From positions 6,543-70,542 of the forward strand of contig CAZVGL010000003.1 of NCBI GenBank assembly GCA_964626705.1: DNA of 64,000 nucleotides, written 5' to 3'. The notes beneath the pieces were generated by a model. It worked only from the letters and a program-made list of their open reading frames with translations, did no database searches and had not been told where the DNA came from. Below, piece by piece: positions 14,545 through 64,000 of the stretch; positions within the stretch are counted from its first letter, which is position 1, and each line of letters starts with the position of its first letter. Origin of the DNA: an uncultured Candidatus Saccharibacteria bacterium (GTDB taxonomy: Bacteria > Patescibacteriota > Minisyncoccia > Phycocordibacterales > UBA2163). The translations under genes and the position numbers were made by a program.

Positions 14545-15012
14545 TTATTTTATCCCTACAACTTTATAATTCATCTTTCCGTTAGGAGTTGTAAATGAGA
14601 ATGTCTCACCTTTTTTCTTTTCCATCATGGCTCCACCAAGTGGCGAAAGGTGCGATATTTTTCTTTCTTGCATGTCTGCCTCTTCTGATCCTACTATTAA
14701 ATAAGTTCTAGTTTCTTTTTCACCATCTTTTTGTATGTCTACCTCAGAACCAAGGGATACAGTGTCGGTGCTTTTTTGTGCGACGATTTTAGCTGTTTTT
14801 AATATAGATTCAAGTTTGTTTATTCTATCTTCTGTTGCAGCTTGTAAGTCACGCGCTTCGTGGTATTCTGCATTTTCTGAAATGTCACCAAGTGAACGTG
14901 CGTACTCAAGATTCTCTGCAATCTCTTTTCTACGTGTTGTTTTAAGAAAATCAAGCTCCTTCTGAAGCTCGTCAAATTTCTCTTTAGTCAAGAATTCATT
15001 TTCTGTTGTCAT
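14545..15012 (-). CDS. greA: Transcription elongation factor GreA
   Basis: 155 aa. N-terminal coiled-coil with acidic tip (RSLGDISENAEYH) and C-terminal FKBP-like domain. Confidence 0.85.
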   Translation of the reverse strand: MTTENEFLTKEKFDELQKELDFLKTTRRKEIAENLEYARSLGDISENAEYHEARDLQAATEDRINKLESILKTAKIVAQKSTDTVSLGSEVDIQKDGEKETRTYLIVGSEEADMQERKISHLSPLGGAMMEKKKGETFSFTTPNGKMNYKVVGIK

Positions 15013-15060
15013 ATTAGTGTATATTTTATCTTATCTAAAATAAGAGTCAAGTTTTAAATT

Positions 15061-16776
15061 TTATCTTAAATACTCTGGTGTGTTTTCTGTCATCCATTCT
15101 AGAAGTTGGCGCATTATATACAAGGCGCCGATAGTATTACTCTCTCTTCCTTTTTCCATTATAACAGTAAAAGCGTACTTGGGATTATCATATGGAAAGA
15201 AGCCTACGACAAGAGAGTTTACATATGTTTTAGTTGTACCGAGTTGTGCAGTACCAGTTTTAGCAGCTACTTTCACTTGTGGTATTTTGAGCCCTTTTGC
15301 AGTGCCATCTGTCACTGACTGTCGCATCCCTTCCCTTACTATTGAATAATATTTTTTACGTACAGATGCTCTGTCTGACTCCCCGCCACCACCTAAAAGT
15401 AAGGTTGGTTTGTAGAGTTTACCTTCGTTTGCTATTGCTGATACAGCACGTGCAAGTTGTAGGGCTGTTACTTGGAAACCATATTGACCAATAGCGGTAT
15501 GATATGTATCACCAATCCTCCATTCATCACCAGGAAAGTTTTCTTCTTTCCATTGAGGGTTTGGTATTACTCCGTCTTTCTCATCTAATACTTCGTCTTG
15601 ATAAATGTTTGTTTTTTCTCCAAAGCCAAACATCCTCATATACTCTTCGATTCTTTTAATCCCTAACCCTTCTTGACCTTTAAAACCACCACCTACTTCA
15701 TAAAAATATACATTAGATGATACAGCGATAGCGTCTCTCATATCTACAAGCCCATGCGCTTTCCAGTCTACAAAAACAGATTCTTTGTCCTTAAAATATG
15801 GATTTGGTATAGATATAGATCCGGTACTTAAGATCTGCTTATTGGGATCGATCAGTTTTTCATTAAGTGCACCGAGTGAAACAAAAAGCTTTACAGTCGA
15901 ACCTGGAGTATATAAACCGGAAGTTGTTCTGTTGAGGTATGGATTATTTTTATCTTGCGCGTATTGAGTTATTTTTTCTTTAGGTTCACCATCTGAAAGT
16001 ACTTGTGAATTATATTCAGGAAAGCTCGTCATAGACAAGATCTCTCCACTGTTTACATCCATAATCACTCCAGCTCCACCATCGAAACCCACTTCGTTCA
16101 CTAGATTTTCTATAAATTCGTACATTTTATTTTGTACTCGTGCATCTATAGAAAGAGTTACGTTACCGCCCTCCTTTGGAGGTAAGGTGACACTTTCTGA
16201 CTCTACTTCCATGCGTGCATTTGTTTCTACTATCTTAAGTCCAGGACTTCCGCTTAATATTTTATTGTATAGTTTTTCTACTCCAGCTTTTGGTATAAAT
16301 TCATTTTGATAATATACACCAGACTTATCTTTAAGTGGATAGCTCACATACCCAAGTATGTGTGAAAGACCAGATAGTTCTGAGTATTTTCTTCTTGAGA
16401 AATCTTCTTCGTCAGTTGCTGAATTTTCTTTTGCATTCCATACAAGTTCTGTGTTGTTTCTGTCGTAGATCACACCACGATCCGCAAATACTATGGAATT
16501 ATCTAATCTATTATTTTCACTAATAGATGCAAAGGTTTTACCTTGACCAATTTGTAGATCCCAAACTTTCCATCCAAATATTATGATAATAATAAAAAAG
16601 ACTACTCCAATAGCAACAACCGAACTTCTTGAGATCGGTCGTTCTATTCTCCCTTCAAACTGGTCTGTATTAAACTCCGGTAAGTTCGTAGAGTCAATAA
16701 AGATCTCATCGGGTTCTATTTCCCTATTTCGAATAGAATTCCTTCTAGATATTTTTCTTAAGTGTTTAAATACCAT
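15061..16776 (-). CDS. mrdA: Penicillin-binding protein 2 (elongasome transpeptidase)
   Basis: STVKLF (SxxK), SSN and KTGTAQ motifs, plus an N-terminal TM segment. Lies immediately downstream of mreBCD. Confidence 0.8.
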   Translation of the reverse strand: MVFKHLRKISRRNSIRNREIEPDEIFIDSTNLPEFNTDQFEGRIERPISRSSVVAIGVVFFIIIIIFGWKVWDLQIGQGKTFASISENNRLDNSIVFADRGVIYDRNNTELVWNAKENSATDEEDFSRRKYSELSGLSHILGYVSYPLKDKSGVYYQNEFIPKAGVEKLYNKILSGSPGLKIVETNARMEVESESVTLPPKEGGNVTLSIDARVQNKMYEFIENLVNEVGFDGGAGVIMDVNSGEILSMTSFPEYNSQVLSDGEPKEKITQYAQDKNNPYLNRTTSGLYTPGSTVKLFVSLGALNEKLIDPNKQILSTGSISIPNPYFKDKESVFVDWKAHGLVDMRDAIAVSSNVYFYEVGGGFKGQEGLGIKRIEEYMRMFGFGEKTNIYQDEVLDEKDGVIPNPQWKEENFPGDEWRIGDTYHTAIGQYGFQVTALQLARAVSAIANEGKLYKPTLLLGGGGESDRASVRKKYYSIVREGMRQSVTDGTAKGLKIPQVKVAAKTGTAQLGTTKTYVNSLVVGFFPYDNPKYAFTVIMEKGRESNTIGALYIMRQLLEWMTENTPEYLR

Positions 16777-29349: not shown

Positions 29350-29766
29350 TTAAGACAAACCATTGTCAGTGAATGTTTCTATATACCCCATATCTTCATT
29401 TAAGATGTGGCCAATCCACCAATCTTCTAAGAAATCTAACACTTCAAAGAGAAAGCTCGTCATTGCCCCATCTCCCAGAGTATTAATTTTTTCTTGAAAT
29501 TCTCCTATTTTTGTCCTGTAACTATTGTGACTTTCCTTATGCTTATCAGAGTCAGCATAATTAAATTGATCAAAATACTTTTCTTCAGTCTTAAAATGAT
29601 AATTAGCATAATCATTAAGACCTCCAATCAGCTTGAGCGCTTCTTCTCTAGGTCCATTGTTTTTAATAAGCTCGTCCATAGCATTTAAGAATCCAAACAA
29701 CTTCTGATGCTGTTCATTGATCTCTTTAACCTTTACACTATATTCTTCTTTCCATTCTAATTTCAT
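29350..29766 (-). CDS. Bacteriohemerythrin (single-domain hemerythrin-like protein)
   Basis: MKLEWKEEY...INEQHQKLF N-terminus. HF(K)TEE...H...H and FLEDWWIGHILNEDMGY match the H/HxxxE/HxxxH/HxxxxD diiron ligands. Confidence 0.75.
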   Translation of the reverse strand: MKLEWKEEYSVKVKEINEQHQKLFGFLNAMDELIKNNGPREEALKLIGGLNDYANYHFKTEEKYFDQFNYADSDKHKESHNSYRTKIGEFQEKINTLGDGAMTSFLFEVLDFLEDWWIGHILNEDMGYIETFTDNGLS

Positions 29767-29774
29767 ATTATCTA

Positions 29775-30191
29775 TTACACTAATCCGTTATCATTAAATG
29801 TTTTTGTATACTCTTTATCTTTATGTAAGATATGTCCCACCCACCAGTCCTCAAGAAAATCTAACATTTCAAATGCTAGCTTGATCGCATCACCACCGTT
29901 TAACTCAGCTACTTTTTTCTCAAAATCTATTACCTTATCCATATAGTCATGGTGACGTTTTTTATGATCTTCTTTGTCCTCATAATCAAACTGGTCAAAG
30001 TACTTTTCTTCTGTTGCAAAATGAAACTTTGCATAGTCATTTAAGTTGTCTATCGTAGCAGTTAATCCTTCTTTTGCATTATCTGAATGAGTTGAATTAT
30101 CAAGTTCATTAATAAAACCTATAATTTTTTTATGTTGATTGTTTATTTCTTCAACACCAACACCATATTCTTCTTTCCATTCTAATTTCAT
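29775..30191 (-). CDS. Bacteriohemerythrin (tandem paralogue)
   Basis: MKLEWKEEYGVGVEEINNQHKKII...HFATEEKYF...HHDY...DWWVGHILHKDKEY, the same ligand pattern as the neighbouring gene. Confidence 0.75.
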   Translation of the reverse strand: MKLEWKEEYGVGVEEINNQHKKIIGFINELDNSTHSDNAKEGLTATIDNLNDYAKFHFATEEKYFDQFDYEDKEDHKKRHHDYMDKVIDFEKKVAELNGGDAIKLAFEMLDFLEDWWVGHILHKDKEYTKTFNDNGLV

Positions 30192-30205
30192 ATTATTTTA
30201 TTAAA

Positions 30206-46673: not shown

Positions 46674-46880
46674 TTATTTGCAATTTATCGAGCAGGTTCT
46701 CCTCATTTCTTTTAGCTTAGCTTTTTGTAGATGTGAATCCTTCTTATCTACGACCTTATAGTCTACATCTCTTATGTCCTTATTTCCTTCTGTAAACCCA
46801 TCCCCCATCTCAAAATCAATACTTGTTACATAGTACAAACCAAGTCCTACAAAAAATACAATTATTATTAAAATAAACAT
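46674..46880 (-). CDS. Small membrane protein (68 aa), hypothetical
   Basis: TGCTATAAT-type box directly upstream (46881-46893). N-terminal TM helix. Confidence 0.3.
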   Translation of the reverse strand: MFILIIIVFFVGLGLYYVTSIDFEMGDGFTEGNKDIRDVDYKVVDKKDSHLQKAKLKEMRRTCSINCK

Positions 46881-46906
46881 ATCAGTATTATAGCAAATTT
46901 AAGTTT

Positions 46907-47550
46907 TTACAAACTAATACGAGATCTTATAAAAGCATCGGCATCTTCTGAGCACTCTTGCACCTTATCCTTTGATACATATAAATACCTGCGATCTTCT
47001 GATGTCTTTCTGCCTTTTATACATTCTAGATGTAGGTGTATCCCATGTGACAAACCAGTCTGCCCAGTAATACCGCATACATTACCTACACTATACTGAC
47101 CTTTACCTGGAGCTTGGTCTCGCAGATGAAAATATACAAAAGTACGATCTACCTCCGGCACATAATAGAAAAAATAATTACCAAAATACTGGTTTAAGCC
47201 TGTCTCTATAACCTCCCCATCTGCACAAAAATATAACGGCACCATATCTTCTCCTTGAGTACCGTAGTCAACACCAGGGTGATGCCCCGTCTTCTTATAT
47301 GTGTCTGGATCGTGGTTTAGGAAAGATTGTGTGATGCTAAACTTATCAGACCTAATAGGAACATGCCATTTGGGTAATACTACTACAGGTGTATCTTCTA
47401 CTTCTTCTACTACTACAGGTTCACTGCTCGTATCTGGAGTAGTATCTACTACAGTGGTAGAAACAGTAGTTTCTATCTTTGTAGTTGACTTAACAGACGT
47501 GCGACCAAATAAAGAAGCAAGTATTGCAAAAAAGGCTTTTAATATTTTCA
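46907..47550 (-). CDS. M23-family (LytM-like) peptidoglycan endopeptidase (start taken at MKILKAFF)
   Basis: HHPGVDYGTQGEDMVPLY (HxxxD), FCADGEV and HGIHLHLE (HxH) M23 motifs. Signal peptide. Confidence 0.65.
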
Positions 47551-47556
47551 TATGGT

Positions 47557-47633
47557 TATTATAGCAGATTTCAACGGCTAAGCTTCCCAAAGCTTAGCCG
47601 TTGCCTAAAATCAATATTTCTGGTATTGTGCGG
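47557..47633. promoter_or_regulatory. Divergent promoter cassette, copy 1. It holds a TGCTATAATAA box for the minus gene, a 10-bp hairpin (47576-47599) and TTGCCT-N17-TATTGT-GCGG for the plus gene.
   Basis: Read directly. The same architecture recurs at 48367-48467. Confidence 0.5.
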
Positions 47634-47673
47634 TAAATCAATTGTTTTTTAATTTATATATAGGGAGATAAAA

Positions 47674-48066
47674 GTGGAAAATCAAACACTCGGCTTTTCA
47701 GAATCTATACCGAAAGAAATACTCGATGCCATATTGACGAGTTGCCATAATCCATTAAAAAGTCCGAAAGAAATTATGGAAGAAAAATGCTATTTAGTAC
47801 AAACTGATGATTCGTTATCAGTTGACAGTATGATACGCGTCCATATTTACAATGATGAAGCGGATTGTGAAGTAACTGGTAAACTTATCAACATAGAAAA
47901 TTGTAAGATCGAAGAAGATGCACACCTCCCGCAATATCAGATAAAAGGAGAAATATCAGTGAATATTTTCAATAGGTTATTGGAACATCTTGCAAAGAGA
48001 TTCAGTGATCAAAAAATCATGTTATCAAAAGGAAATCATGAATATCGCGAACCAAGGAGTAAGTAG
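47674..48066 (+). CDS. Hypothetical protein (130 aa)
   Basis: GGGAGA RBS, cassette promoter upstream and terminator at 48101-48138. Confidence 0.35.
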   Translation: MENQTLGFSESIPKEILDAILTSCHNPLKSPKEIMEEKCYLVQTDDSLSVDSMIRVHIYNDEADCEVTGKLINIENCKIEEDAHLPQYQIKGEISVNIFNRLLEHLAKRFSDQKIMLSKGNHEYREPRSK

Positions 48067-48100
48067 CTGTAGTCACACAAAATCATCCGATACACGAAAA

Positions 48101-48138
48101 AAGGCGGCCCGCATAAAAACGGATCGCCTTCTTTTTTT
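48101..48138. terminator. Bidirectional terminator (AAGGCGgcccgcataaaaacggatCGCCTT + T-run), homologous to the one at 48724-48760
   Basis: Stem plus T8 read directly. Confidence 0.55.
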
Positions 48139-48147
48139 GCTTGCATG

Positions 48148-48360
48148 CTAATAATCAATAACCTTCCCCGTGTTTTCTGGGATCAAGAAAATCGCGATTA
48201 TGTAAAGCAAGACACCAGGTGCAAAACCTGAGACAACCGCCACCAAGGCCCATATGATACGGAGGATCGTTGGGTCGATATCAAAATACTCGCCTATACC
48301 TCCAACGATACCGAAGAATATTTTATTGTCTTTACTTTTGTATAGTTTTTTTGTTTTCAT
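48148..48360 (-). CDS. PspC-domain small membrane protein (start taken at MKTKKLYK)
   Basis: KIFFGIVGGIGEYFDIDPTILRIIWAL PspC signature followed by a TM helix. A TGCTATAATAAAC box lies 5 nt upstream of the ATG. Confidence 0.55.
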   Translation of the reverse strand: MKTKKLYKSKDNKIFFGIVGGIGEYFDIDPTILRIIWALVAVVSGFAPGVLLYIIAIFLIPENTGKVIDY

Positions 48361-48366
48361 GAGTTT

Positions 48367-48467
48367 ATTATAGCAAATCACAACACAGCCGGACATAGCC
48401 GTGGATTGGTTGAACGGCTCAAGTCGTTGAGCCATTGCCTAAAATGAGCATTTCTGATATTGTGCGG
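48367..48467. promoter_or_regulatory. Divergent promoter cassette, copy 2 (TGCTATAATAA / hairpin 48416-48433 / TTGCCT-N17-TATTGT-GCGG)
   Basis: Read directly; paralogous to 47557-47633. Confidence 0.5.
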
Positions 48468-48506
48468 GAAGTTAGTTATTTTAAAACTTAATTGGGGAGG
48501 GACATT

Positions 48507-48696
48507 AATGGAATTAAATCCTGACGATATCGTACTGATTCGTGCTAAAGTAACCAGAATACAAGACAATGGAGCAGTAGGAGTAATGGTTGACTACTCT
48601 TGTAGGCCAAAACCACATCATGCTTTTTTTACGATCCAGGATGGAGATTTAGCAGAACTTGTTGTCCCATTAAAGCAAGACAGCATAAAATCTTAA
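48507..48696 (+). CDS. Hypothetical small protein (63 aa from MELNPDD)
   Basis: GGGGAGGG RBS 6 nt upstream. Cassette promoter upstream and terminator 48724-48760 downstream. Confidence 0.3.
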
Positions 48697-52437: not shown

Positions 52438-52476
52438 ATTTTTATTATAGTAAAATTAATAACATTATCTGCACAG

Positions 52477-52547
52477 CTGCCGGACTAGGACTCGAACCTA
52501 GATACCTAGTACCAAAAACTAGTGTCCTACCATTAGACGATCCGGCA
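52477..52547 (-). tRNA. tRNA-Gln (anticodon UUG); CCA not encoded
   Basis: Cloverleaf read by hand. Acceptor stem UGCCGGA/UCCGGCA, D-arm GUCU-AAUGGUAG-GGAC, anticodon arm CUAGU-UUUUGGU-ACUAG, T-arm CUAGG-UUCGAGU-CCUAG and discriminator G. A TATAAT box lies upstream at about 52560. Confidence 0.75.
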
Positions 52548-52638
52548 ATATATTCAATTATACCAAAAACCCACCACTTCGACGATCCGGCAATTTATTT
52601 ATTTGCTACGTAACATGCTACGTAACAAACTCAACTAC

Positions 52639-52702
52639 GGCCGAGGACTCACCTCCGTACATTCCGCTTCGCTCCATTCCCCGAGGAAAGACCTCCGCCT
52701 CC
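52639..52702 (+). repeat. Copy A of a roughly 55-nt conserved intergenic element (AAGG/GAGG-ACTC-ACCTCC...CCGAGGAAAGACCTCC)
   Basis: Aligned by eye with copies at 55476-55534 and 59496-59551, all in the same orientation. Confidence 0.5.
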
Positions 52703-52703
52703 A

Positions 52704-53741
52704 CTATTTACTATCTTGCCCCAAGATCTTGATCAAAGCAAGTTCTAGGGGAAGTTGGGGGATATATGAGCGACCAGTGGCGTCATACGCTAGCAGTAGC
52801 TCTGTAAGTGTATTTGAGTTGATCTTACTCTTTTCTTCCCCACTGAGCTTCTTTAAAAGCTCAAAATCCTCCCCACCAAACTGCTCTTTTATAACACCCT
52901 CCATATCTTTTGCATATTTCAGAAGCATTACAGAACGCACTTTATGAAGTATCATTTTCAAAAACACTTTCATGTCTATATTCCCCTCCACAGCAGAGTT
53001 CACTGCTTGAAGACTTTTATCCAAATCCCCTTCTGCAAGACCTCCAACTATATCGTTCACTAGCTGACCCTTTGGCGCACCGGCCACTCTCTCCACCTCC
53101 TCTACACTCACCTTCTTGTCAGCAGATGAAAAGAGTATCTTCTGGAGTATGCCATGTGTATCACGGAAAGAGCCGTCGCCAAGCATCGCTATAAGCTCTG
53201 AAGCAGACGACTCAAGCTCAAAACCTTCTTTCTTTGCAGTTGCTTCAACTATTTTTTTTAAAATCTTCTGAGACGGCTTTTTAAATGTAAAAGTCTGACA
53301 CCTAGATACTATAGTGTCAGGAAGCTTCTCTATCTCTGTGGTCGCAAGCATGAATATCACATGTGTAGGTGGCTCTTCTAAAGTCTTCAGGAGTGCATTA
53401 AACGCTTCTTTTGTAAGCATGTGCACCTCGTCTATTATATATACTTTATACGGTGACTCAAACGGTAACACTGTTACAGCTTCTCTAAGCTCACGGATGT
53501 CGTCAATACCTCTGTTTGATGCCGCATCTATCTCATGCAAGTCATTAGGAGAACATTTTACTTCATTTGCCAATATCCTCGCAATACTTGTTTTGCCAGT
53601 CCCACGAGAACCAGAAAAGAGGTAAGCGTGAGCAATATTACCTTGCTTAAGAGCACCAGTAAGTGCATCTACAATATGCTCCTGACCAAGCACATCTTTA
53701 AACCCCTTCGGGCGGTATTTTCTATAGAGTACCTCTGACAT
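52704..53741 (-). CDS. dnaX: DNA polymerase III gamma/tau subunit, short form (start taken at MSEVLYRKYRPK)
   Basis: YRPK..F.DVLGQEH, Walker A SGSRGTGKTS, DEVHML (Walker B), sensor motifs and zinc-less clamp-loader architecture. Confidence 0.85.
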   Translation of the reverse strand: MSEVLYRKYRPKGFKDVLGQEHIVDALTGALKQGNIAHAYLFSGSRGTGKTSIARILANEVKCSPNDLHEIDAASNRGIDDIRELREAVTVLPFESPYKVYIIDEVHMLTKEAFNALLKTLEEPPTHVIFMLATTEIEKLPDTIVSRCQTFTFKKPSQKILKKIVEATAKKEGFELESSASELIAMLGDGSFRDTHGILQKILFSSADKKVSVEEVERVAGAPKGQLVNDIVGGLAEGDLDKSLQAVNSAVEGNIDMKVFLKMILHKVRSVMLLKYAKDMEGVIKEQFGGEDFELLKKLSGEEKSKINSNTLTELLLAYDATGRSYIPQLPLELALIKILGQDSK

Positions 53742-53880
53742 AGGCAATATTATATCACGTAATCCACATAAGCCGAACCAACCCCTTGACATTTCCCCCG
53801 TATATGCTAGTATATAGCTTGGTCACCCGTTTTTGTATCTGTGTATATTTATATTTTCTAAATTATTTAGGAGAATGAAA

Positions 53881-53988
53881 TATGTCATTTATACAGTCTT
53901 TTAAAACAGTCGTAACGGAAGTAGCAATGATAGTAGGATTGGTTCTTGCTTATTTTATAACCGCAAAGATAGGAGGTATATTGTGGTA
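53881..53988 (+). CDS. Small hydrophobic peptide (35 aa: MSFIQSFKTVVTEVAMIVGLVLAYFITAKIGGILW)
   Basis: AGGAGA RBS 8 nt upstream. A single TM helix. Shares an F(K/R)xxVTEV motif with the peptide at 54297-54422. Confidence 0.35.
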
Positions 53989-54003
53989 AGAATAGGCAAA
54001 CTA

Positions 54004-54111
54004 ATGGACAAGTCTGCGGATGTATTTTGGGATATCATTACACATAAATACTGCAAAGTACTTTATATCGCAGTAATGATCGCATGTTGCGCCATAATAG
54101 CCACAGTCTGA
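54004..54111 (+). CDS. Small hydrophobic peptide (35 aa: MDKSADVFWDIITHKYCKVLYIAVMIACCAIIATV)
   Basis: ORF with a C-terminal TM helix. Weak RBS. A hairpin terminator follows at 54127-54167. Confidence 0.25.
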   Translation: MDKSADVFWDIITHKYCKVLYIAVMIACCAIIATV

Positions 54112-54296
54112 CTGTCTACTCGACAGTACACACCCCCACCAAACATTGGTGCGGGTGTGTTTTTATTTACCTGACTACAAAACAAACACAATTAACTTAT
54201 GCACCTGTGTTTGTTTACCCTCAAATACATAAATGTTATTTTAATAATAGCAGTAGAAGAACCTTTATTTTTGTAATCTGTAAAGTGGAGGGTAAG

Positions 54297-54422
54297 ATGA
54301 CTATTAGTGTAAAGCAATCTGGAAAGTTTCGAGAAATGGTAACAGAAGTATTACCACGATATTATCCACATATTTTTGCAGTCATTGTTGTAGCCGTTGG
54401 CTTGTGTGCAATATTTGGCTAA
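54297..54422 (+). CDS. Small hydrophobic peptide (41 aa: MTISVKQSGKFREMVTEVLPRYYPHIFAVIVVAVGLCAIFG)
   Basis: GGAGGG RBS 7 nt upstream. C-terminal TM helix. A bidirectional terminator follows at 54449-54497. Confidence 0.4.
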   Translation: MTISVKQSGKFREMVTEVLPRYYPHIFAVIVVAVGLCAIFG

Positions 54423-54499
54423 CAGTCACCACCATTTTTATCAGAAAGACCCTAACGCTCAAATCAGTTTGATTTGTACGAGCGTTAGGGCTTTTTTGT

Positions 54500-55453
54500 T
54501 TATTTATTTAAATACTCATTCACAGTATTTTCTACATCACTTGCTGTTTTTGCTTCCATAAGTTTAATGCGCAACTCTTTTGCACCATCCCAACCATACA
54601 CATATGCTTTATAATGCTTCTTCATAATAGAGAAGTTTTTTTGTGAAGCTATCTCTTCAAAAAGTTTTGTATGCTCTACCATTACTTTTAATTTTTCTTC
54701 TATATCCACCTCACCTTTCTCTTCATCAAAAAGCCATGGATTACCAAATATTGCCCTACCGAGCATAACGCCGTCTGCCCCAGTCTCTTCTGCTTTTTCT
54801 CGTGCATCTTTTATATCTTTTATGTCACCATTGCCACAAATTAATGTGTCACTTTTCATCTTGTCGCGCATCTCTACTGCTCTTTTTATATAAGACCAAT
54901 CAGCAGGAACTTTAGACATTTGTTTTCTTGTGCGCGCATGGATAGTTATCACTGCAGGCTCTGCTTTAAGAAGTACTGGCAACCATTCATCTAGCTCATC
55001 TTTGTTATACCCTACTCTTGTTTTTACAGACACTGGTAGATCCCCCGCACCATCTTTTGCAGCTTTTATGAGTTCTGCTGCGAGCTTTGGATTCTTCATA
55101 AGAGCAGACCCTGCGCCTTGCTTTTCTATACTTCTATCAGGACAACCCATGTTTATGTCTATACCGTCAAAACCTAGCTCAACTGCGAGCTCGGCTGCTT
55201 TTTTCATACGCTCAGGGTCAGATGTAAAGAACTGCGCAACTATAGGCCTCTGGGCTTCTGTAAACTCCAAGTCTTTTACAAGAGCTTCTTTGCCACCGAG
55301 AAAAAGCCCGTCTGCAGAGACAAATTCTGTATAAGTGACGTCAGGTTTTCCATACTTTGCTATAACCCGCCGAAAAGGTGCATCCGTGACATCTGCCATA
55401 GGTGCAAGTACAAAAAACGGCTTATTTAGCTTTTTCCAAAATTCTTTTGACAT
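54500..55453 (-). CDS. tRNA-dihydrouridine synthase (Dus family, FMN-dependent TIM barrel)
   Basis: FVLAPMADVTDAPFRRV N-terminus and the conserved catalytic Cys in INMGCPD. Confidence 0.85.
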   Translation of the reverse strand: MSKEFWKKLNKPFFVLAPMADVTDAPFRRVIAKYGKPDVTYTEFVSADGLFLGGKEALVKDLEFTEAQRPIVAQFFTSDPERMKKAAELAVELGFDGIDINMGCPDRSIEKQGAGSALMKNPKLAAELIKAAKDGAGDLPVSVKTRVGYNKDELDEWLPVLLKAEPAVITIHARTRKQMSKVPADWSYIKRAVEMRDKMKSDTLICGNGDIKDIKDAREKAEETGADGVMLGRAIFGNPWLFDEEKGEVDIEEKLKVMVEHTKLFEEIASQKNFSIMKKHYKAYVYGWDGAKELRIKLMEAKTASDVENTVNEYLNK

Positions 55454-55475
55454 AAATCTAATATATCATTTATAC

Positions 55476-55534
55476 TCCTCAAGGTCTCACCTCTTCCGTC
55501 GCTCCACTCCTCCTCGAGGAAAGACCTTTTCCCG
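55476..55534 (+). repeat. Copy B of the conserved intergenic element (TCCTCAAGGTCTCACCTC...CCTCGAGGAAAGACCTTTTCCCG)
   Basis: See copy A. Lies between the dus start and the ftsQ-like stop. Confidence 0.5.
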
Positions 55535-55541
55535 TATAAAA

Positions 55542-56366
55542 TTATTTAAACTTAAAATACACTTTATTACCAAAACGGAAATCTGCATAGTCTAAGACCT
55601 CAAGACTTTCTTTCTCAAACTCTTCCCCACCAAATACAGATTGTATATTTTCAAAAATACTCGAAAGGTTCTGCTTCCTTCCAAAGAGTATCTTACCTCC
55701 ACTCCCTAGCACTATCTCAAAATCATCTTTATCTAAAATACTAAACACTACTGGGTTCAAACCAATCTCTGAAAGAGAAGTTAAGAAAAAGTTAATCTCT
55801 TTAAAATCTGCAACTTCCATAAACTGCTCTCCTATATCTACCTCAGATCCAAAATATCTTAAAAACACACTCCCAGAGAAGTCTGGTGCTTTTGTAAACA
55901 TAAGCCCGTCTTCATCTAAGAAATAACAGTCTGTAGTTGTAGAAACTTCACTACCACAATAAAGCGCATGGGGCTTTCTCTCTTCTACACTAATAGATAT
56001 AGACTGCAAACTTTCAAACGAGACATCCACTTCTTTTATCTCTTTAAAATCTGCAAGAAGTTTTTCTTGCAAGTCTTTTCTTGGATACAGAAGTATACTT
56101 GATTTTGGAAAGACATATGCGTAGTTGCCAGATATCTTATCTTCCACAAAACCTTTTATTGATTTTGTTGCTATAGCTGAATTACCTTTTATATTAATAT
56201 CAATAATATTTATACGCTCTGCTCTAAGTGCAAACACGACACCTACTGTTATCAAGACCAAAACAGCAAGAATACCACTGATCTTTAATATCAGTAATTT
56301 TCTTCTTCTTTCTGCAAGTTTGGAGTGCGGTTTATGTCGATGGTGTTTGCGTCTTATTGTTGTCAT
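55542..56366 (-). CDS. FtsQ/DivIB-like cell-division protein (TM + POTRA-like domain)
   Basis: Basic N-terminus, a single TM helix (ILAVLVLITVGVVFAL) and a beta-rich periplasmic domain. Family call by architecture only. Confidence 0.45.
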   Translation of the reverse strand: MTTIRRKHHRHKPHSKLAERRRKLLILKISGILAVLVLITVGVVFALRAERINIIDINIKGNSAIATKSIKGFVEDKISGNYAYVFPKSSILLYPRKDLQEKLLADFKEIKEVDVSFESLQSISISVEERKPHALYCGSEVSTTTDCYFLDEDGLMFTKAPDFSGSVFLRYFGSEVDIGEQFMEVADFKEINFFLTSLSEIGLNPVVFSILDKDDFEIVLGSGGKILFGRKQNLSSIFENIQSVFGGEEFEKESLEVLDYADFRFGNKVYFKFK

Positions 56367-57639
56367 TTTCTACACTTTTTTTAATAACACTTCTTCCTCC
56401 CATATATTTTTGAAGCACTTCTGGAATATTTATTGAGCCGTCTTCGTTTTGATTGTTTTCTATAAGAGCGATTAGTACGCGCGGAGTTGGTATAGCTGTA
56501 CCGTTTAGAGAATATACATAATGCTTTTTACCATTATCATCATACCTAGTATTGAATCTGCGAGTTTGGAAATCGTGATAATACGATGCACTAGCTATCT
56601 CAGCGTATCTTTTCTCGGCAGGAAGCCAAAGATCTGTATCGTATGATTTAACCTGACTTGATTTCAAATCACCTTTACATATAGAAAGCTGTCTGTATGG
56701 TAAATTAAGTGACTCAACAAACTCTTCAGTGTTTCTTTGTATCTCTTCATGAAATTTAACAGATTCCTCGTGGCTTGCTTCACATAAAATAAGTTGTTCA
56801 AGCTTAAAGAATTCGTGTACTCGCATAAGACCTTTAGTGTCTTTACCATGACTTCCTGCCTCGCGCCTAAAGCATGGAGAGAAAGCAAGATAACGTTTTG
56901 GCAAATCTTCTTTTTTTAACATTTCATCTGAGTGATACGCCATCATCGGTACTTCAGCAGTACCTGACAGATAGTCGTCATCTTGTGTTTTGAAGAGGTC
57001 GTCTGCATCTGTCGGCAAGTGTCCTGTACCATAAAAGAAATCTTTTTTAACAATAGATGGTGCTATGAATGGTTCAAAATTTTTCTTTAAGAAAAACTCT
57101 TGCGCATAGTTCCAGATAGCCCACGAAAGAAGAGCGCCGTCATTTTTAAGAAAATACCCACGGAAACCATGCACTTTACTTCCACGTTCAAAGTCCACCA
57201 TATTTAGGTTTTGCATTAGCTCTATATGACCTTTGGGCTCAAAGCTAAATTCTGGAATATTGCCCCATTTTTTTATTTCTTTATTATCGTCCTCACTCTC
57301 TCCATCTGGTACAGACATATCAGGGATATTCGGCACACGCACCATCAGATGTTGCCACTCTTTCATAACCTCTCTTAGTTCAGACTCTTCTCCTGTGATA
57401 ACATCTTTGAGCATTTTCATCTTCGTTATAAGATGATTGCGCTCTTCTTCATCTACTGTTTTTGCTATCTCTTCTGACACAGTGTTTTGTTCAGCCTTTT
57501 TCTCCTCAAAACTAGTTATCCTTTTCCTTCTATCGTCGTTAACCTCAACCAGCCTATCAATATCAACTTCCACATGCTTTTTCTTAGCTGCTGCTTTTAC
57601 TATGTCTTTATTTTCTATAATAAATTTGATATCTAACAT
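56332..57639 (-). CDS. serS: Serine--tRNA ligase
   Basis: N-terminal coiled-coil arm (MLDIKFIIENKD...) and class II motifs (FRRE, GSHGKDTKGLMRVHEF, NGTAIPTPRVLIALIEN). Confidence 0.9.
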   Translation of the reverse strand: MLDIKFIIENKDIVKAAAKKKHVEVDIDRLVEVNDDRRKRITSFEEKKAEQNTVSEEIAKTVDEEERNHLITKMKMLKDVITGEESELREVMKEWQHLMVRVPNIPDMSVPDGESEDDNKEIKKWGNIPEFSFEPKGHIELMQNLNMVDFERGSKVHGFRGYFLKNDGALLSWAIWNYAQEFFLKKNFEPFIAPSIVKKDFFYGTGHLPTDADDLFKTQDDDYLSGTAEVPMMAYHSDEMLKKEDLPKRYLAFSPCFRREAGSHGKDTKGLMRVHEFFKLEQLILCEASHEESVKFHEEIQRNTEEFVESLNLPYRQLSICKGDLKSSQVKSYDTDLWLPAEKRYAEIASASYYHDFQTRRFNTRYDDNGKKHYVYSLNGTAIPTPRVLIALIENNQNEDGSINIPEVLQKYMGGRSVIKKSVENDNNKTQTPST

Positions 57640-57674
57640 TCCTTATATAGTATCAAAAGTGATAGAATAAACAA

Positions 57675-58538
57675 ATGAGTAGTGACATTAGACAACTAAC
57701 ACCAGAACAATACCCAGAGCTTCTTAAGGAAATCAACGACCCACCTAAGAAGCTTTATGTGCGCGGTGAGCTTCCTCCAACAGAGATGAGATACTTATGT
57801 GTAGTAGGTTCTAGAAAATATTCCCCATATGGAAAAGAAGCGTGTAGAACCTTAATAAAAGGTTTACGTGGATATCCTATAGTTATAGTCTCAGGTCTCG
57901 CACTCGGCATAGACTCCATAGCGCACGAAGCAGCGCTTGAAGTAGGCCTTAAGACTATCGCTGTTCCAGGTTCTGGACTTAATGAAAATGTACTACATCC
58001 AAAAACAAATAAAGATCTTTCAAGGAGAATAGTGGGTTCAGGTGGTACATTACTCTCAGAGTTTGAAGAAAACTTTAAAGCCACGTACTATAGCTTCCCG
58101 CAAAGAAACAGGGTGATGGCGGGCATGTCACAAGCTACTCTTATAATAGAAGCTGAAGAAAAGTCCGGCACACTTATAACTTCCAAGTTTGCTACCGAAT
58201 ACAACAGAGACGTACTCACAGTGCCTGCTTCTATATTTTCTGGCAACTCATCCGGCCCGCATATGTTGCTCCGACTCGGTGCCACACCTATAAGAAAAAG
58301 CGAGGATATCTTAGAAGCATTGGGGTTTAATGTAGAAGAAAAACAACAAACTTTAGATCTTGAGAGTCTGTCTGAGAAAGAGCAAAAAATAGCATATATA
58401 TTAAATACGCCAATGACACGCGACGATCTTATAAGTAAGCTTAACCTCCCAATACAAGAAGTAAATGTAACCCTTTCCGCAATGGAAATAAAAGGTATTA
58501 TAAAGGAGAGTATGGGGGAAATACGAATTAATAAGTAA
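57675..58538 (+). CDS. dprA: DNA-processing protein DprA (Smf)
   Basis: LCVVGSRKYSPYG, IVSGLALGIDSIAHEAAL Rossmann-like DprA signature and a C-terminal winged-helix-like tail. Lies upstream of topA, as is common. Confidence 0.85.
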   Translation: MSSDIRQLTPEQYPELLKEINDPPKKLYVRGELPPTEMRYLCVVGSRKYSPYGKEACRTLIKGLRGYPIVIVSGLALGIDSIAHEAALEVGLKTIAVPGSGLNENVLHPKTNKDLSRRIVGSGGTLLSEFEENFKATYYSFPQRNRVMAGMSQATLIIEAEEKSGTLITSKFATEYNRDVLTVPASIFSGNSSGPHMLLRLGATPIRKSEDILEALGFNVEEKQQTLDLESLSEKEQKIAYILNTPMTRDDLISKLNLPIQEVNVTLSAMEIKGIIKESMGEIRINK

Positions 58539-58550
58539 TAACATTTTTTT

Positions 58551-59066
58551 ATGATCAAAAAAACAGTAGGACTTATAGTATTAGCAAACACACAAGAAAA
58601 AGGGTTAGTAGCTGTACTTCAAGTACGTGGTAATTTTAATACTGAAAAAAACAATAAAGAGACATACAACGGCGCTTGTCAGCTTACAGTACATGGAAGT
58701 ATGAACGACGGTGAGTCAGAAACAGATACACTTCTGCGTGAGACAAGAGAAGAACTTGGCGAAGATTTTGCAGAGATCTTGGAGTCAGAACTTAATATAC
58801 ATAAAAATTTTATCGATCTAAATAAAATAGAAAATGAGAATATGTCAGTTGCGAATTTCGGCACAATGGTAAAAGAGAGTGCTTTAAAAGAAATAGAGAT
58901 CAATCAATCAACAGGTGGGAGTATAAGACTCATATCAAAAGACGATATAGGAAACATTCGCGAACTAACGCCAGAAGACAGAGAAAATGGTATTGCAGAG
59001 GATGAAACAGTGATGTTCCCAGACGACATAGAAGCAGTGAAACTAACATTTGAGAAGTTTGCATAG
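58551..59066 (+). CDS. NUDIX-family hydrolase (putative)
   Basis: Nudix-box-like GESETDTLLRETREELGEDF (Gx5Ex7REUxEExGU pattern). Confidence 0.45.
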   Translation: MIKKTVGLIVLANTQEKGLVAVLQVRGNFNTEKNNKETYNGACQLTVHGSMNDGESETDTLLRETREELGEDFAEILESELNIHKNFIDLNKIENENMSVANFGTMVKESALKEIEINQSTGGSIRLISKDDIGNIRELTPEDRENGIAEDETVMFPDDIEAVKLTFEKFA

Positions 59067-59166
59067 AGTTTGACAAAGAATATAGCTATGTTACTTTATT
59101 GGAAGCAACGCAGTTTTTTAAGTGGTTATATATATCTTTTTTATTTATTTTGAAAGGGGTAATTGT

Positions 59167-59370
59167 ATGACATTTCGTTACAGTATAGGAAAAATAGAAA
59201 TAGAAAAGCATGCCAGAAAGACACTTAGCAAACTTATACGGGATCATAATCATTTTGTAGACAAGGGCAAGTCACATGAAACAGACAAGATACGACCAAA
59301 TATAGTAAAAATGATAGGACAATACAACCTGAAAGTAAGTGGTTGTGGATGCATTCATGCACCACAATAA
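59167..59370 (+). CDS. Small hypothetical protein (67 aa from MTFRYS); the C-terminus carries CGC
   Basis: AAAGGGG RBS. A hairpin terminator follows at 59399-59439. Confidence 0.25.
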   Translation: MTFRYSIGKIEIEKHARKTLSKLIRDHNHFVDKGKSHETDKIRPNIVKMIGQYNLKVSGCGCIHAPQ

Positions 59371-59398
59371 CGAACAGATCAATTCGTAAGAATTAATA

Positions 59399-59439
59399 GC
59401 GAGAGGGCTAAAGCTAAATAGCCCACTCGCTTGTTTTTT
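59399..59439 (+). terminator. Rho-independent terminator (GCGAGAGGGCT...AGCCCACTCGC + T7)
   Basis: 11-bp stem read directly. It is followed by a TTGACT-N17-TACTAAT promoter (59452-59481) for topA. Confidence 0.65.
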
Positions 59440-59495
59440 ATCTAGAAAAATTTGACTAAAATAATACTTTGTAGTACTAATTAAACAATCATCGC

Positions 59496-59551
59496 TCCTC
59501 AAGGACTCGCCTCCGCTACACTTTGTTCCGCCGAGGAAAGTACTTTTCCCG
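59496..59551 (+). repeat. Copy C of the conserved intergenic element, located in the topA 5' leader (TCCTCAAGGACTCGCCTCC...CCGAGGAAAGTACTTTTCCCG)
   Basis: See copy A. Lies between the predicted TSS and the topA ATG, which has no SD sequence. Confidence 0.5.
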
Positions 59552-59568
59552 CGATGCACTAAAATAAA

Positions 59569-61809
59569 ATGACTAAACTTTTAATAGTAGAGTCGCCTGC
59601 AAAGGCGAAAACTATAACTAAATATTTAAACGACCTTCCAGACAGAACGGAAGATTTTGTTGTGACTTCTAGTGTCGGGCATGTACGTGACTTACCCAAG
59701 AACAATAAAAAAGCGATAGACATCGAAGCTGGTTTTGTCCCCAATTATGAAATAAGTCGTGGTAAGGAAAAAGTAATAGCTGAGATAAAAAGCAAAGCAA
59801 AAAAAGCAAGCGAAGTTCTACTCGCTACCGACCCCGACCGTGAAGGTGAAGCTATAGCTTGGCATTTAAAAGAAGTACTTGGCCTAAAAGACCCAAAAAG
59901 AATCGTTTTTAATGAGATAACAAAAGACGCCGTACAAGAAGCTATAGGGCATCCAAGGGAGATAGACGAGAACCTGCGTAAAGCGCAAGAAGCACGTCGT
60001 GTACTTGATCGCTTGGTGGGCTATGATCTTTCGGGACTTATCTGGAAAAAGGTTCGTTATGGACTCTCAGCTGGACGTGTACAATCCCCCTCTCTTAGAA
60101 TAATAATGGAGCGCGAGCGAGAGATCCGTGCTTTTATACCTGAAGACTTTTGGGTTATAACTGCTGATGTTAAAAATAAAAGCAATTCGCAATTCACACT
60201 TACTTGCGCAGAAGAACCCAGAGAAGAAAAAGAAATGCAGAGGATAATGGATGCAGGTAAAGTAGGCAAATGGAATGTAACTGATATAAAAGAAAGTGAA
60301 ATGAAACGCTCTCCTCGCGCGCCTTTTATAACATCAACCCTTCAACAAACAGCAAGCACAAGACTCGGTTTTGCACCATCCAAGACTATGGGTATCGCAC
60401 AGAAACTTTATGAAGCAGGTCATATTACTTACATGCGTACAGACAGTACTACAATGTCAAAGCAAGCGCATGCGCAAATAGTAAAAGTAGTTACTGACAA
60501 ATATGGCAAAGAGTATTACGAATCTAGAGTATTTAAAACAAAAAGTAAATCTGCTCAAGAAGCGCACGAAGCTGTACGTCCTTCTGATATAGCAAAAGAA
60601 TCTGCAGGTACTACAGAAGAACAGAAGAGACTTTATCGTCTTATATGGCAAAGAACTGTTGCTTCACAAATGACAGATGCCAAACTTTTGAAAATGAAAA
60701 TGATAGTAAATGCAGAAGGTAATGATGAGATACCTAACTTTACTACAAATGGCTCACGGACACTTTTTGACGGATGGTTTAAAGCAGACCCAGATGCACG
60801 AGGCGAAGACGTAGAGCTTCCAAAAGTAGACGTAGGTGAGACCTTAAAGCTTATAGAGATGCTGGAAGAAGCAAAACAAACACAACCGCCGTCACGATAC
60901 ACAGAAGCAGGGCTTATAAAAGAGCTTGAAAAAAGAGGCATAGGACGCCCTTCTACTTATGCATCTATTATGAGAACTCTCAACGACAGAGGATACGTAG
61001 AAAAACAAGGTAAAACTCTTTTCCCTACTGACACTGGTGACGTGGTTAGCTCTTTCTTAGAAGAGAATTTTGATAAATATATAAGTGATTCGTTTACAGC
61101 TGAGATGGAAGACGAGCTAGATGAAATAGCTGATGGAAAACGTGAATATGCAAAAACTCTTGCTGATTTTTATACACCGTTTACAAAAGACGTAGACTCT
61201 AAAAAAGATATAGAAAAAATAACAAACATGGGTGATGCACCAGAAGAATTTAAGTGCCCAGAGTGTAATGCTGCGATGGTTATCAAGCTTTCTAAGACTG
61301 GGAAATTTATGAGCTGTTCTAAGTTTCCAGACTGTAGTGGTGCACGAACCATAGAGGGCGAAGAGCTTGAAGGGCCAAAAGAAACTGGTGAAGATTGCCC
61401 TAAGTGCGGACTTACTTCTCCGGAAGAAAAAACTAAAACTGGCAAAATAAAAAAGAAAGAAGGTGGACGGCTTGTAGAAAGGGATGGGCGTTTCGGTAGG
61501 TTTATTTCTTGCAACAGATATCCTAAATGTAAATTTATAAAAACTTCACCAGAAGAGGAGGCTCGAATGAAGACAGGAATAAAATGTAATAAATGCTCTG
61601 ATGGTGAAATGTCAGAAAGACGTGGACGCTTTGGTATATTCTACAGCTGTTCTAACTACCCTACCTGCAAACATGCTATAAAAGCAAAGCCTACTGGCAA
61701 CTTCTGCGAAATGTGTAACTCCCTCATGATGGAAGGTACAAAAACTATCCCCGAGCGCTGTAGTGACAAGGTTTGCCCCAACCACAACCCACATAAGCTT
61801 AATAAATAA
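59569..61809 (+). CDS. topA: DNA topoisomerase I with C-terminal zinc-ribbon repeats
   Basis: TOPRIM (LLIVESPAKAKTI, DPDREGE) and the active-site Tyr region (ITYMRTDS). Four C4 zinc ribbons in the C-terminal third. Confidence 0.9.
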   Translation: MTKLLIVESPAKAKTITKYLNDLPDRTEDFVVTSSVGHVRDLPKNNKKAIDIEAGFVPNYEISRGKEKVIAEIKSKAKKASEVLLATDPDREGEAIAWHLKEVLGLKDPKRIVFNEITKDAVQEAIGHPREIDENLRKAQEARRVLDRLVGYDLSGLIWKKVRYGLSAGRVQSPSLRIIMEREREIRAFIPEDFWVITADVKNKSNSQFTLTCAEEPREEKEMQRIMDAGKVGKWNVTDIKESEMKRSPRAPFITSTLQQTASTRLGFAPSKTMGIAQKLYEAGHITYMRTDSTTMSKQAHAQIVKVVTDKYGKEYYESRVFKTKSKSAQEAHEAVRPSDIAKESAGTTEEQKRLYRLIWQRTVASQMTDAKLLKMKMIVNAEGNDEIPNFTTNGSRTLFDGWFKADPDARGEDVELPKVDVGETLKLIEMLEEAKQTQPPSRYTEAGLIKELEKRGIGRPSTYASIMRTLNDRGYVEKQGKTLFPTDTGDVVSSFLEENFDKYISDSFTAEMEDELDEIADGKREYAKTLADFYTPFTKDVDSKKDIEKITNMGDAPEEFKCPECNAAMVIKLSKTGKFMSCSKFPDCSGARTIEGEELEGPKETGEDCPKCGLTSPEEKTKTGKIKKKEGGRLVERDGRFGRFISCNRYPKCKFIKTSPEEEARMKTGIKCNKCSDGEMSERRGRFGIFYSCSNYPTCKHAIKAKPTGNFCEMCNSLMMEGTKTIPERCSDKVCPNHNPHKLNK

Positions 61810-63594: not shown

Positions 63595-64000
63595 TTAAAG
63601 AGAGAAATTCTTTATAGAATATAAGTCTTCATCTTCTGCCTCTTCTTCTTTTTCATTTTCTGACCTATCGTCTAAGACTACCCCTTCTTCGACTGCTGGA
63701 TCAGCTGACTCTTCACCCACTTCTTTATTTGTATTTATAAACTTCTCTACTTCTTCTTGACCTTTTGCACCTTCTTCTTTGTTTAATACATCTAAGAGAC
63801 CTCGCAGATCGTCAGCAGAGAAGAAATCAATAGTTAGCTTACCTCCGACTTGTCTTTTTTCTATCTGTACTCTTGTACCCAGTGTTTCTGTAAGCTGGTT
63901 TTCAAGCTCTACTATTTCAGGATCAAATTTTAATGATTGCTTTCTTACTTTGTCTGACGCCACCCTTCTTGATATAGCTTCTGCCTCACGTACTGTAAGC
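63595..64000 (-). CDS. ParB/Spo0J-like C-terminal fragment with an acidic tail; the gene continues beyond the window edge
   Basis: The reading frame is open to position 64000. The C-terminal dimerisation-like segment LGTRVQIEKRQVGGKLTIDFFSADDLRGLLDVL resembles the ParB C-terminal domain. Weak call. Confidence 0.35.
   Translation of the reverse strand, partial: LTVREAEAISRRVASDKVRKQSLKFDPEIVELENQLTETLGTRVQIEKRQVGGKLTIDFFSADDLRGLLDVLNKEEGAKGQEEVEKFINTNKEVGEESADPAVEEGVVLDDRSENEKEEEAEDEDLYSIKNFSL

Follow-up and report, generated by a model that had tools for sequence, protein, structure and literature searches.

The window analysed here is a 64,000-nt stretch of DNA from an uncultured Candidatus Saccharibacteria bacterium (GenBank assembly GCA_964626705.1, contig CAZVGL010000003.1, positions 6,543 to 70,542 of the forward strand), and our subject is a short hairpin element that occurs in it as three copies, A, B, and C. 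The window is ~35% GC, and the elements form GC-richer islands within short spacers. Copy A (52639..52699, minus strand, full span including the outer stem) lies 4 nt past the stop codon (52704-52706) of dnaX (52704-53792, minus strand) and ~90 nt upstream of a tRNA-Gln gene (52476-52547, minus strand), the only feature in the window to reach an Rfam gathering score. Copy B (55470..55539, minus strand), a long-tip variant, occupies the 88-nt spacer from an ftsQ-like gene (55542-56366, minus strand) to dus (54500-55453, minus strand), beginning 2 nt past the ftsQ-like stop codon and ending 16 nt short of the dus ATG. Copy C (59490..59556, minus strand), which has a short-tip-type apex with a 2-nt insertion, is antisense to topA (59569-61809, plus strand) and sits between the topA -10 box and the topA ATG (59569), so that its plus-strand form makes the 5' end of the topA mRNA.

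An initial annotation of this DNA had described the three sites as same-strand copies of an intergenic element of ~55 nt. The two blocks that it named, AAGGNCTCNCCTC and, after a variable stretch, CGAGGAAAGNNCTT, are present at all three sites, and the gene contexts that it gave (3' of dnaX, the spacer between the ftsQ-like gene and dus, and the topA leader) are correct. The copies are where it placed them, but the units are longer, each with an outer stem; likewise, all three do lie on one DNA strand, but it is the minus strand, rather than the plus strand, that carries the G.U pairs and an open reading frame (ORF). The observation is confirmed and the proposed mechanisms are only partly supported, and the hairpin structure, the covariation, and the mobile-repeat nature of the element had been missed.

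Each unit is a long hairpin of 65-80 nt that takes the same fold from either strand. Because U.G pairs turn into C.A mismatches, the plus-strand folds are 7-10 kcal/mol weaker than the minus-strand folds, and the elements are therefore described in the minus-strand sense. An outer stem (P1) is followed by a symmetric 5x5 internal loop, a stem P2 of 7-8 pairs, a stem P3 of 4 pairs, and a variable tip. In the minus-strand reading, both sides of the loop are all-purine (GGGAA and GAGGA) and the helices contain U.G pairs; P2 is AAGGUC.../...GACCUU and P3 is CCUC/GAGG, and P1 differs between copies yet pairs (UUAUAC/GUAUAA in copy B, CAUCGC/GCGAUG in copy C). In plus-strand coordinates, copy B consists of P1 (55470-55475 with 55534-55539), the purine loop strands (55476-55480 and 55529-55533), P2 (55481-55488 with 55521-55528), P3 (55490-55493 with 55516-55519), and the variable tip (55494-55515), and P1 of copy C pairs 59490-59495 with 59551-59556. 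Copy A is a divergent 'type II' member with the hairpin base GGC.GAGG / CCUC.GCC and a longer tip; it is a decayed or variant form from which the 5x5 purine loop is absent, as it is from copies at two other loci (L032 and L037). The minus-strand fold energy is -27.5 kcal/mol for copy A, and that of copy B is -24 kcal/mol (z = -3.75), its sequence being unchanged across six contigs of the same population.

The element belongs to a dispersed family. A first scan with an exact pattern, one genome being used per species, yielded 40 stretches, 23 of which lie in metagenome-assembled genomes (MAGs) of Parcubacteria, Paceibacteria, or Nomurabacteria; the other 17 are isolated occurrences in unrelated, mostly GC-richer genomes (GC 0.44-0.61 where examined) with no flanking similarity. 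The MAG JADHUX01, ~80% identical to the window at the DNA level, gave at least 11 exact pattern matches, the highest number for one assembly. From the 23 relatives and the three window copies, aligned over the whole hairpin, a covariance model (R1) was built, and it finds 34 copies in 142 kb from 22 Parcubacteria loci. A second scan, anchored on the loop and the P2 base only, led to 60 metagenome loci, where the model finds 60 copies (46 distinct) in 419 kb. Altogether, ~90 further copies were found in Parcubacteria/Paceibacteria genomes and metagenomes, at a density of about one copy per 4-20 kb in the fetched loci and the window; the related genomes, from which absence would have spoken against the element according to the initial annotation, thus do carry it. 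Copies within one genome are all different, the differences being compensatory, which argues against a recent burst. Our literature search found no report of such repeats in Patescibacteria, and the hairpin repeat family is previously undescribed.

Within the window, the model matches copy A at 52628-52710(-) with 48.4 bits (E = 2.6e-14, filters off), copy B at 55466-55543(-) with 72.4 bits (E = 1e-22), and copy C at 59486-59560(-) with 69.3 bits (E = 1e-21), although these scores partly reflect construction, since the three copies are among the 26 model-building sequences. The model finds no further copy in the 64 kb, the best independent match scoring 12 bits (E = 0.2), and a fourth, weaker copy of the same genome lies past window position 64000, between ahpC and parB (L001:712-795, minus strand, 30.7 bits). 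The 12-mer CGAGGAAAGWAC with at most one mismatch is found only at the three element sites, and the three copies share 70% mean identity in alignment. Chance similarity among GC-richer intergenic sequences of an AT-rich genome could be argued from the fact that the same 12-mer with two mismatches is no commoner than in shuffled sequence (10 found versus 6.9 expected). This idea is already refuted, and can be given practically no weight, in view of model E values of 1e-14 to 1e-22 (the window copies having helped to build the model) against 0.2 for the next independent match in the window, and of the ~90 homologous copies elsewhere with compensatory changes. The claim of a genuine repeat therefore holds.

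The stems covary extensively. The P1 consensus is AAATCGC...GCGATTT, ~7 bp with a median contiguous stem of 6-7 bp, and P1 is thus a terminal inverted repeat, with compensatory changes at its middle pair. In the 26-sequence alignment, all seven P1 pairs change on both sides, and 90% of cells are paired, a share that drops to 42-54% if the 3' partners are displaced by 1-3 columns. The covariation check proposed in the initial annotation gave a score of 0.321 versus 0.138 +/- 0.013 for shuffled alignments, none of 500 shuffles reaching the observed value. One tip pair occurs as C-G (12 sequences), as G-C (8), and as U-A (4). In the wider and less biased metagenome sample, the distal part of P2 (e.g., GGUCUUU/GAGACC, GGUCGUU/GCGACC, GGUCGGU/UCCGACC) and all of P3 (e.g., CCUC/GAGG, CCUU/AAGG) covary too, and the length of the tip varies between 17 nt and over 60 nt, with another hairpin inside it at times; the purine loop and AAGG/CCUU are invariant there, which is partly set by the search pattern, as both samples were gathered with patterns fixing parts of P2, P3, and the loop. 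Over all helices we counted 1448 Watson-Crick pairs, 114 G.U pairs, and 28 A.C pairs. The excess of G.U over A.C is due mainly to one inherited U.G position and is weak in P1 (31 versus 19).

Several known kinds of structured element were considered and rejected. Nothing in Rfam 15, either at the gathering scores or at E <= 10, overlaps the three window elements, which disposes of the resemblance to RNase P P4 raised in the initial annotation and likewise of riboswitch, ribozyme, and small-RNA families. A K-turn in the 5x5 loop was rejected by inspection, as it would shift the P1 register fixed by covariation. An intrinsic terminator does not fit either: no U-run follows P1 on the minus strand, the plus-strand TTTT of copies B and C lies inside the structure, and a terminator consensus scan reported only a small 6-bp site at the edge of copy A. 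For GAGGAG to act as a Shine-Dalgarno sequence or in translational coupling, it should stand 5-10 nt upstream of a start codon, and the spacing is wrong (7, 15, 16, 21, 22, 23, 24, 24, 27, 27, 40... to 198 nt; 21 nt to the dus ATG in copy B). An integron attC-like site, a DNA-uptake signal, or a CRISPR repeat fits neither the in-gene copies nor the size nor the covarying stems. A phage origin was rejected because a search of IMG/VR gave no match.

A large share of the copies lies within genes. Among 86 copies in distinct contexts, 33 (~38%) fall within long open frames, of which 22 have the sense and 11 the antisense orientation, although some of the antisense cases are leader copies run through by an ORF (e.g., the SMC gene of L038). 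In 10 hosts, Pfam domains are found on both sides of the element (PolA, UvrB, LeuRS, UvrC, TruB, a reverse transcriptase, KsgA, RecJ, TGT, and RNase HII), one more copy is in an ORF that reads as IleRS from sequence motifs alone, and a single TruB gene (L086:8698-9780) holds three copies; the host proteins share nothing in common. Each length variant has exactly one open sense frame, which encodes a hydrophilic peptide of 19-20 residues: short-tip copies encode AGKGLSSRNEVERGETLRS, and long-tip copies such as copy B encode GKRSFLEEERSDGKGETLRS. When a LeuRS fragment carrying the element was modelled with AlphaFold, residues 122-140, the 19 that the element encodes, received predicted local distance difference test (pLDDT) values of ~47-55, and the flanking helices received values of at least 84. 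The short form occurs in the hypervariable LeuRS linker of two of the 121 sequences compared (the L045 query itself and P0001), and a GQTL...QGLTL variant is present in a few other LeuRS sequences and also in PolA. A concatenated query of element peptides against 5.8 billion protein sequences gave nothing significant, as short local matches cannot reach significance in such a search. The same LeuRS linker, from RVWRL to LHKTIKKV, holds other recurrent hairpin-like peptides in further Patescibacteria, in P0059, P0099, P0030, P0065, and P0010 (e.g., IPAKAGIQRLDPHLHGDD and NFSRFTLLGVPSGSYATQNSS), and these probably stem from insertions of other palindromic repeat families into this tolerant linker.

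The orientation of copies relative to genes is biased by only 2-3:1 in favor of sense (22 versus 11 in ORFs, 18 versus 6 in co-directional spacers), so the 'strict orientation' of the initial annotation was an accident of three copies. Where a gene precedes on the same strand, its stop codon falls within -4 to +2 nt of the P1 start in 11 of 28 copies, which may reflect a preference for TAA/A-rich targets or simply the tiny spacers. These distributions bear on the two mechanisms offered at first, a host protein-binding site and independently transcribed small RNAs, neither of which fits a family that stands in both orientations to genes, has ~38% of its copies in protein-coding genes, and does not conserve its positions. 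That each copy is a small RNA gene of its own is very unlikely. The hairpin is stable, and copy C has no co-oriented upstream gene and is followed, ~60-110 nt downstream on the minus strand, by a bidirectional terminator; however, no promoter accompanies the elements, copies A and B begin 2-4 nt past co-oriented stop codons, a third of the family is within coding sequences, and Rfam offers no match.

Comparison with relatives indicates that positions turn over. Four relatives (L107-L110), whose Dus proteins are 79-89% identical, keep the topA-nudix-dprA/serS-ftsQ-dus-dnaX order. None of them has a copy at site B, where the ftsQ-dus spacer is only 23 nt in L107 and L110, or at site C, where the nudix-topA spacer is ~40 nt; their own copies are elsewhere (L107:12516-12588, L108:2695-2772, and L108:9548-9620). 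In JADHUX01, a canonical copy (L011:7704-7776) occupies the dnaX/tRNA-Gln site at which the window has the divergent copy A. Conversely, JADHUX01 (L011) and L107 carry a copy upstream of a conserved TTGACTTGACA promoter at which the window (~45.3-45.4 kb) has none, and a copy in L034 lies between two genes whose window orthologues are 66 nt apart (15002-15068) without one.

The boundaries of the unit are equally informative. The same P1 (AAATCTC/GAGATTT, AAATCAC/GTGATTT, or TATTTGC/GCAAATA) recurs on different contigs with unrelated flanks, the similarity ending at P1. Copy C is 91% identical, P1 included, to L025:2727-2801, a locus that has no match for any window neighbour protein. Alleles without the element do have a few bases in common with one arm of P1 (GTATAC at site B, CGGAA at ~45.3 kb); P1 as a native target sequence was nevertheless rejected, as the occurrence of the same P1 types in unrelated contexts shows that P1 travels with the element. 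No target-site duplication was detected: flanking 2-mers match in 8 of 68 copies versus 7.9 expected, and none of 3 nt or longer was found. Nesting also occurs, with one copy in another's tip and one at the centre of a 12-bp palindrome (L082:2481-2561, L078:965-1036). A gene-specific regulator was rejected on account of the in-gene copies, the position turnover, and the shared termini in unrelated contexts.

A function of the DNA itself, as the initial annotation had also suggested, is plausible in nature. In the form of a host signal, a double- or single-stranded site that serves recombination or DNA uptake in competence-dependent bacteria, or that is bound by a nucleoid protein or by topoisomerase or gyrase (the latter having been proposed for REP/BIME), it would account for a motif kept on one DNA strand whatever the gene direction, for the dispersal at one copy per 4-20 kb, and for the weak G.U over A.C asymmetry of P1; the window copies are also near dprA, topA, and dnaX, which is probably a coincidence. 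However, a duplex protein site needs neither covarying stems nor a freely variable tip, copy positions turn over between close relatives, and many 13-kb loci of relatives have no copy at all. DNA-uptake signals are ~10-12 nt long and without structure, and the element does not resemble them. We therefore regard a host signal of this kind as improbable, though less so than small RNA genes.

Taken together, the covarying structure, the multi-copy dispersal, the in-gene copies, the position turnover, the shared termini, and the lack of target-site duplication suggest that the three elements belong to a family of non-autonomous palindromic repeats that is, or recently was, mobile in Paceibacteria/Parcubacteria, a reading to which we assign a probability of about 0.68. 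In the scenario that we propose, the unit would spread to new sites without duplicating the target, and a presumed trans-acting enzyme would recognise it as a folded single strand, which might be why the stems keep pairing while their sequence changes. Copies would then persist where the harm is small, namely in tiny intergenic spacers and, inserted in-frame, in surface linkers of proteins.

Some of our results weigh against mobility. Neither a mobilising enzyme nor an autonomous parent nor a target-site duplication was found in the fetched loci, and these loci contain no pair of half-elements 0.2-4 kb apart enclosing a gene, only larger tips and one truncated 5' half. A tblastn search of the 894 kb of fetched sequence revealed no Y1/HUH transposase, although the IS200/IS608 TnpA queries were approximate and make this a weak test. 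No near-identical pair of filled and empty sites is available, so that at any one site an insertion and a deletion would look the same. Compensatory differences within a genome, the conserved purine loop, and the U.G wobble fit a functional RNA under purifying selection as well, and the sense bias (22:11, 18:6) and the G.U over A.C excess (114:28) point to selection on one strand. Finally, the conservation of the loop, P2, and P3 is overstated because the search patterns fix those parts.

The most serious competitor is accordingly a structured RNA module useful to the host, a purine-loop hairpin that would bind an RNA-binding protein or RNase and mark mRNAs for stabilisation, processing, or localisation, and that may have spread by transposition before being selected. 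All helices covary, the 5x5 purine loop is conserved, G.U pairs outnumber A.C pairs, the sense orientation prevails, and the minus-sense folds are the more stable ones; the stop codons close to the P1 start (11 of 28 copies after a same-strand gene) and the absence of a recent burst, with all copies of a genome different, are also consistent with it. On the other hand, 11 of the 33 in-ORF copies and 6 of the 24 in co-directional spacers would appear in the mRNA in antisense form although the DNA-strand motif is the same, positions are not conserved among relatives of the same gene order, and the host genes have no common theme. Copy C, if transcribed with topA, would be present in the antisense form, and GAGGAG is off the Shine-Dalgarno distance (mostly 15-60 nt, one at 7 nt). 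We thus consider this explanation unlikely, yet keep it in view for the purine-loop conservation, the compensatory within-genome differences, and the sense bias. Only slightly less credible is a mobile structured-RNA module, as opposed to inert selfish DNA, in which the purine loop would be the dock for a CPR (candidate phyla radiation)-specific RNA-binding regulator, an RNase, or a reverse transcriptase that would turn the folded RNA into DNA again, much as happens with SINEs. If so, insertions would rewire host mRNA stability or translation (e.g., through the topA 5' hairpin or the ftsQ/dus hairpin), and the family would be a transposable post-transcriptional control element in regulator-poor genomes.

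On the reading as a mobile palindromic repeat, the three copies would each have altered their surroundings. Copy C seems to have gone in between a conserved topA promoter and the ATG. This putative promoter (TTGACT at 59452-59457, a 17-nt spacer, and TACTAA at 59475-59480, plus strand) was recognised by reading the sequence and by comparison with L107-L110; its -10 hexamer ends in A, for which reason the consensus scan had missed it. TTGACT-17-TAC(T/A)AA is conserved between the window (59452-59480) and L107 (1960-2000), and with the -10 box only ~12 nt from the ATG, topA is nearly leaderless in the relatives. The leader would thus have grown from ~12 nt or less to 80 nt, starting with an antisense hairpin of -20 kcal/mol. 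Upstream of the promoter, the block 59086-59445, a whole insertion absent from L107-L110, holds between nudix and the topA promoter a small plus-strand ORF (67 aa from 59167 or 82 aa from GTG 59122, ending at 59370) with no Pfam or NCBIfam match and with its own hairpin-plus-T-run terminator (~59400-59440).

Copy B would add a hairpin of -24 kcal/mol between ftsQ and dus. On the plus strand, opposite to dus, a near-consensus promoter-like sequence (55447-55476, TTGACA-18-TATACT, matching at 11 of 12 positions) runs across the dus start codon and is directed into copy B; judging by its sequence, it would give an RNA antisense to the ftsQ 3' end. Copy A would put a hairpin between dnaX and tRNA-Gln. 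In the same spacer, 14 nt from the intact tRNA-Gln, there is a degenerate tRNA-Gln 5' half (52561-52593, taccaaaaacccaccacttcgacgatccggcaa) that is absent from L011 and may have been left behind when something integrated or was excised at the tRNA, and a 12-nt tandem duplication (GCTACGTAACAT / GCTACGTAACAA, 52605-52628) lies between this fragment and copy A.

Further observations concern the region at large. GC and AT skew change sign at ~57600-58000, at the orientation flip between serS (leftward) and dprA (rightward), which are 35 nt apart, and parB is located just past the window end (L001); a replication origin may lie nearby. Free-standing GIY-YIG ORFs of 76-84 aa (L107:3520-3750, L109:8401-8655) occur in two relatives at differing positions of the otherwise syntenic region and are absent from the window, and they are probably another mobile gene. 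Segments of 34-90 nt repeated at spacings of 390-830 nt (46866-48513 and 29357-30196) are unrelated to the hairpin element and look like repeated upstream regions and paralogous gene segments.

If the family is indeed mobile, some of the insertions in CPR housekeeping proteins that have lacked an explanation (those in LeuRS, IleRS, PolA, and UvrBC, for instance) would be accounted for. The covariance model lets annotators mask a recurrent false 'conserved RNA' or 'conserved peptide', the copies are usable as strain-level insertion markers, and the conserved purine loop with its covarying stems provides a handle for finding the mobilising or binding protein.

Among known systems, the behaviour of the repeat appears closest to that of the Rickettsia palindromic elements (RPE; Ogata et al.) and next to that of REP/REPIN sequences, and we claim membership of neither. 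REP/REPIN sequences are mobilised by RAYT transposases without target duplication, and their hairpins are kept by compensatory change (PMC3116915, PMC3337134, PMC3733652). Like them, the Paceibacteria repeat is short, multi-copy, and hairpin-forming, lacks target-site duplication, shows compensatory changes, is often found right past stop codons, and is plausibly recognised as a folded single strand. Unlike REP sequences, which have a conserved GTAG or CGTC tetranucleotide at one palindrome end (PMC3733652), it ends in AAATCGC followed by GGGAA without such a tag. It is also not restricted to extragenic DNA, 38% of its copies being in ORFs; its copies within one genome are far more diverged than typical REPIN populations; and no RAYT/Y1 transposase was found in the 894 kb of fetched sequence, in what was a weak test with approximate queries. 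With the miniature inverted-repeat transposable elements ERIC, BOX, Correia, and QMITE1, which carry ORFs and are found within genes (PMC10969869), it has in common the small size, the non-autonomous state, the terminal inverted repeats, and the RNA fold; those elements, too, change the transcripts of their neighbours and now and then form in-frame fusions with genes (PMC10969869). It differs from them in the lack of target-site duplication, in having no same-ended parent insertion sequence among the fetched loci, and in being much shorter than most of them.

Nearly half of the RPE are in-frame insertions in unrelated genes (PMC10969869). The Paceibacteria repeat resembles them as a dispersed palindromic repeat in the reduced genome of a host-dependent bacterium, with a large share of its copies in-frame in unrelated housekeeping genes, where they add a conserved peptide in linkers compatible with the protein fold, and with the rest intergenic. 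We know of no transposase for RPE, and likewise of none for the Paceibacteria repeat. In contrast to RPE, to which it is likened by behaviour and not by sequence comparison, it is found in an unrelated phylum, is about half the size (65-80 nt versus ~100-150 bp), has a 7-bp terminal inverted repeat, a 5x5 purine loop, and a variable tip, enters genes in both orientations, and shows very strong compensatory variation in all stems. In-frame colonisation of essential genes by small palindromic repeats has its best-known examples in Rickettsia, and a structurally well-defined analogue in Paceibacteria would extend this kind of intragenomic parasitism to an unrelated reduced, host-dependent lineage of the candidate phyla radiation.

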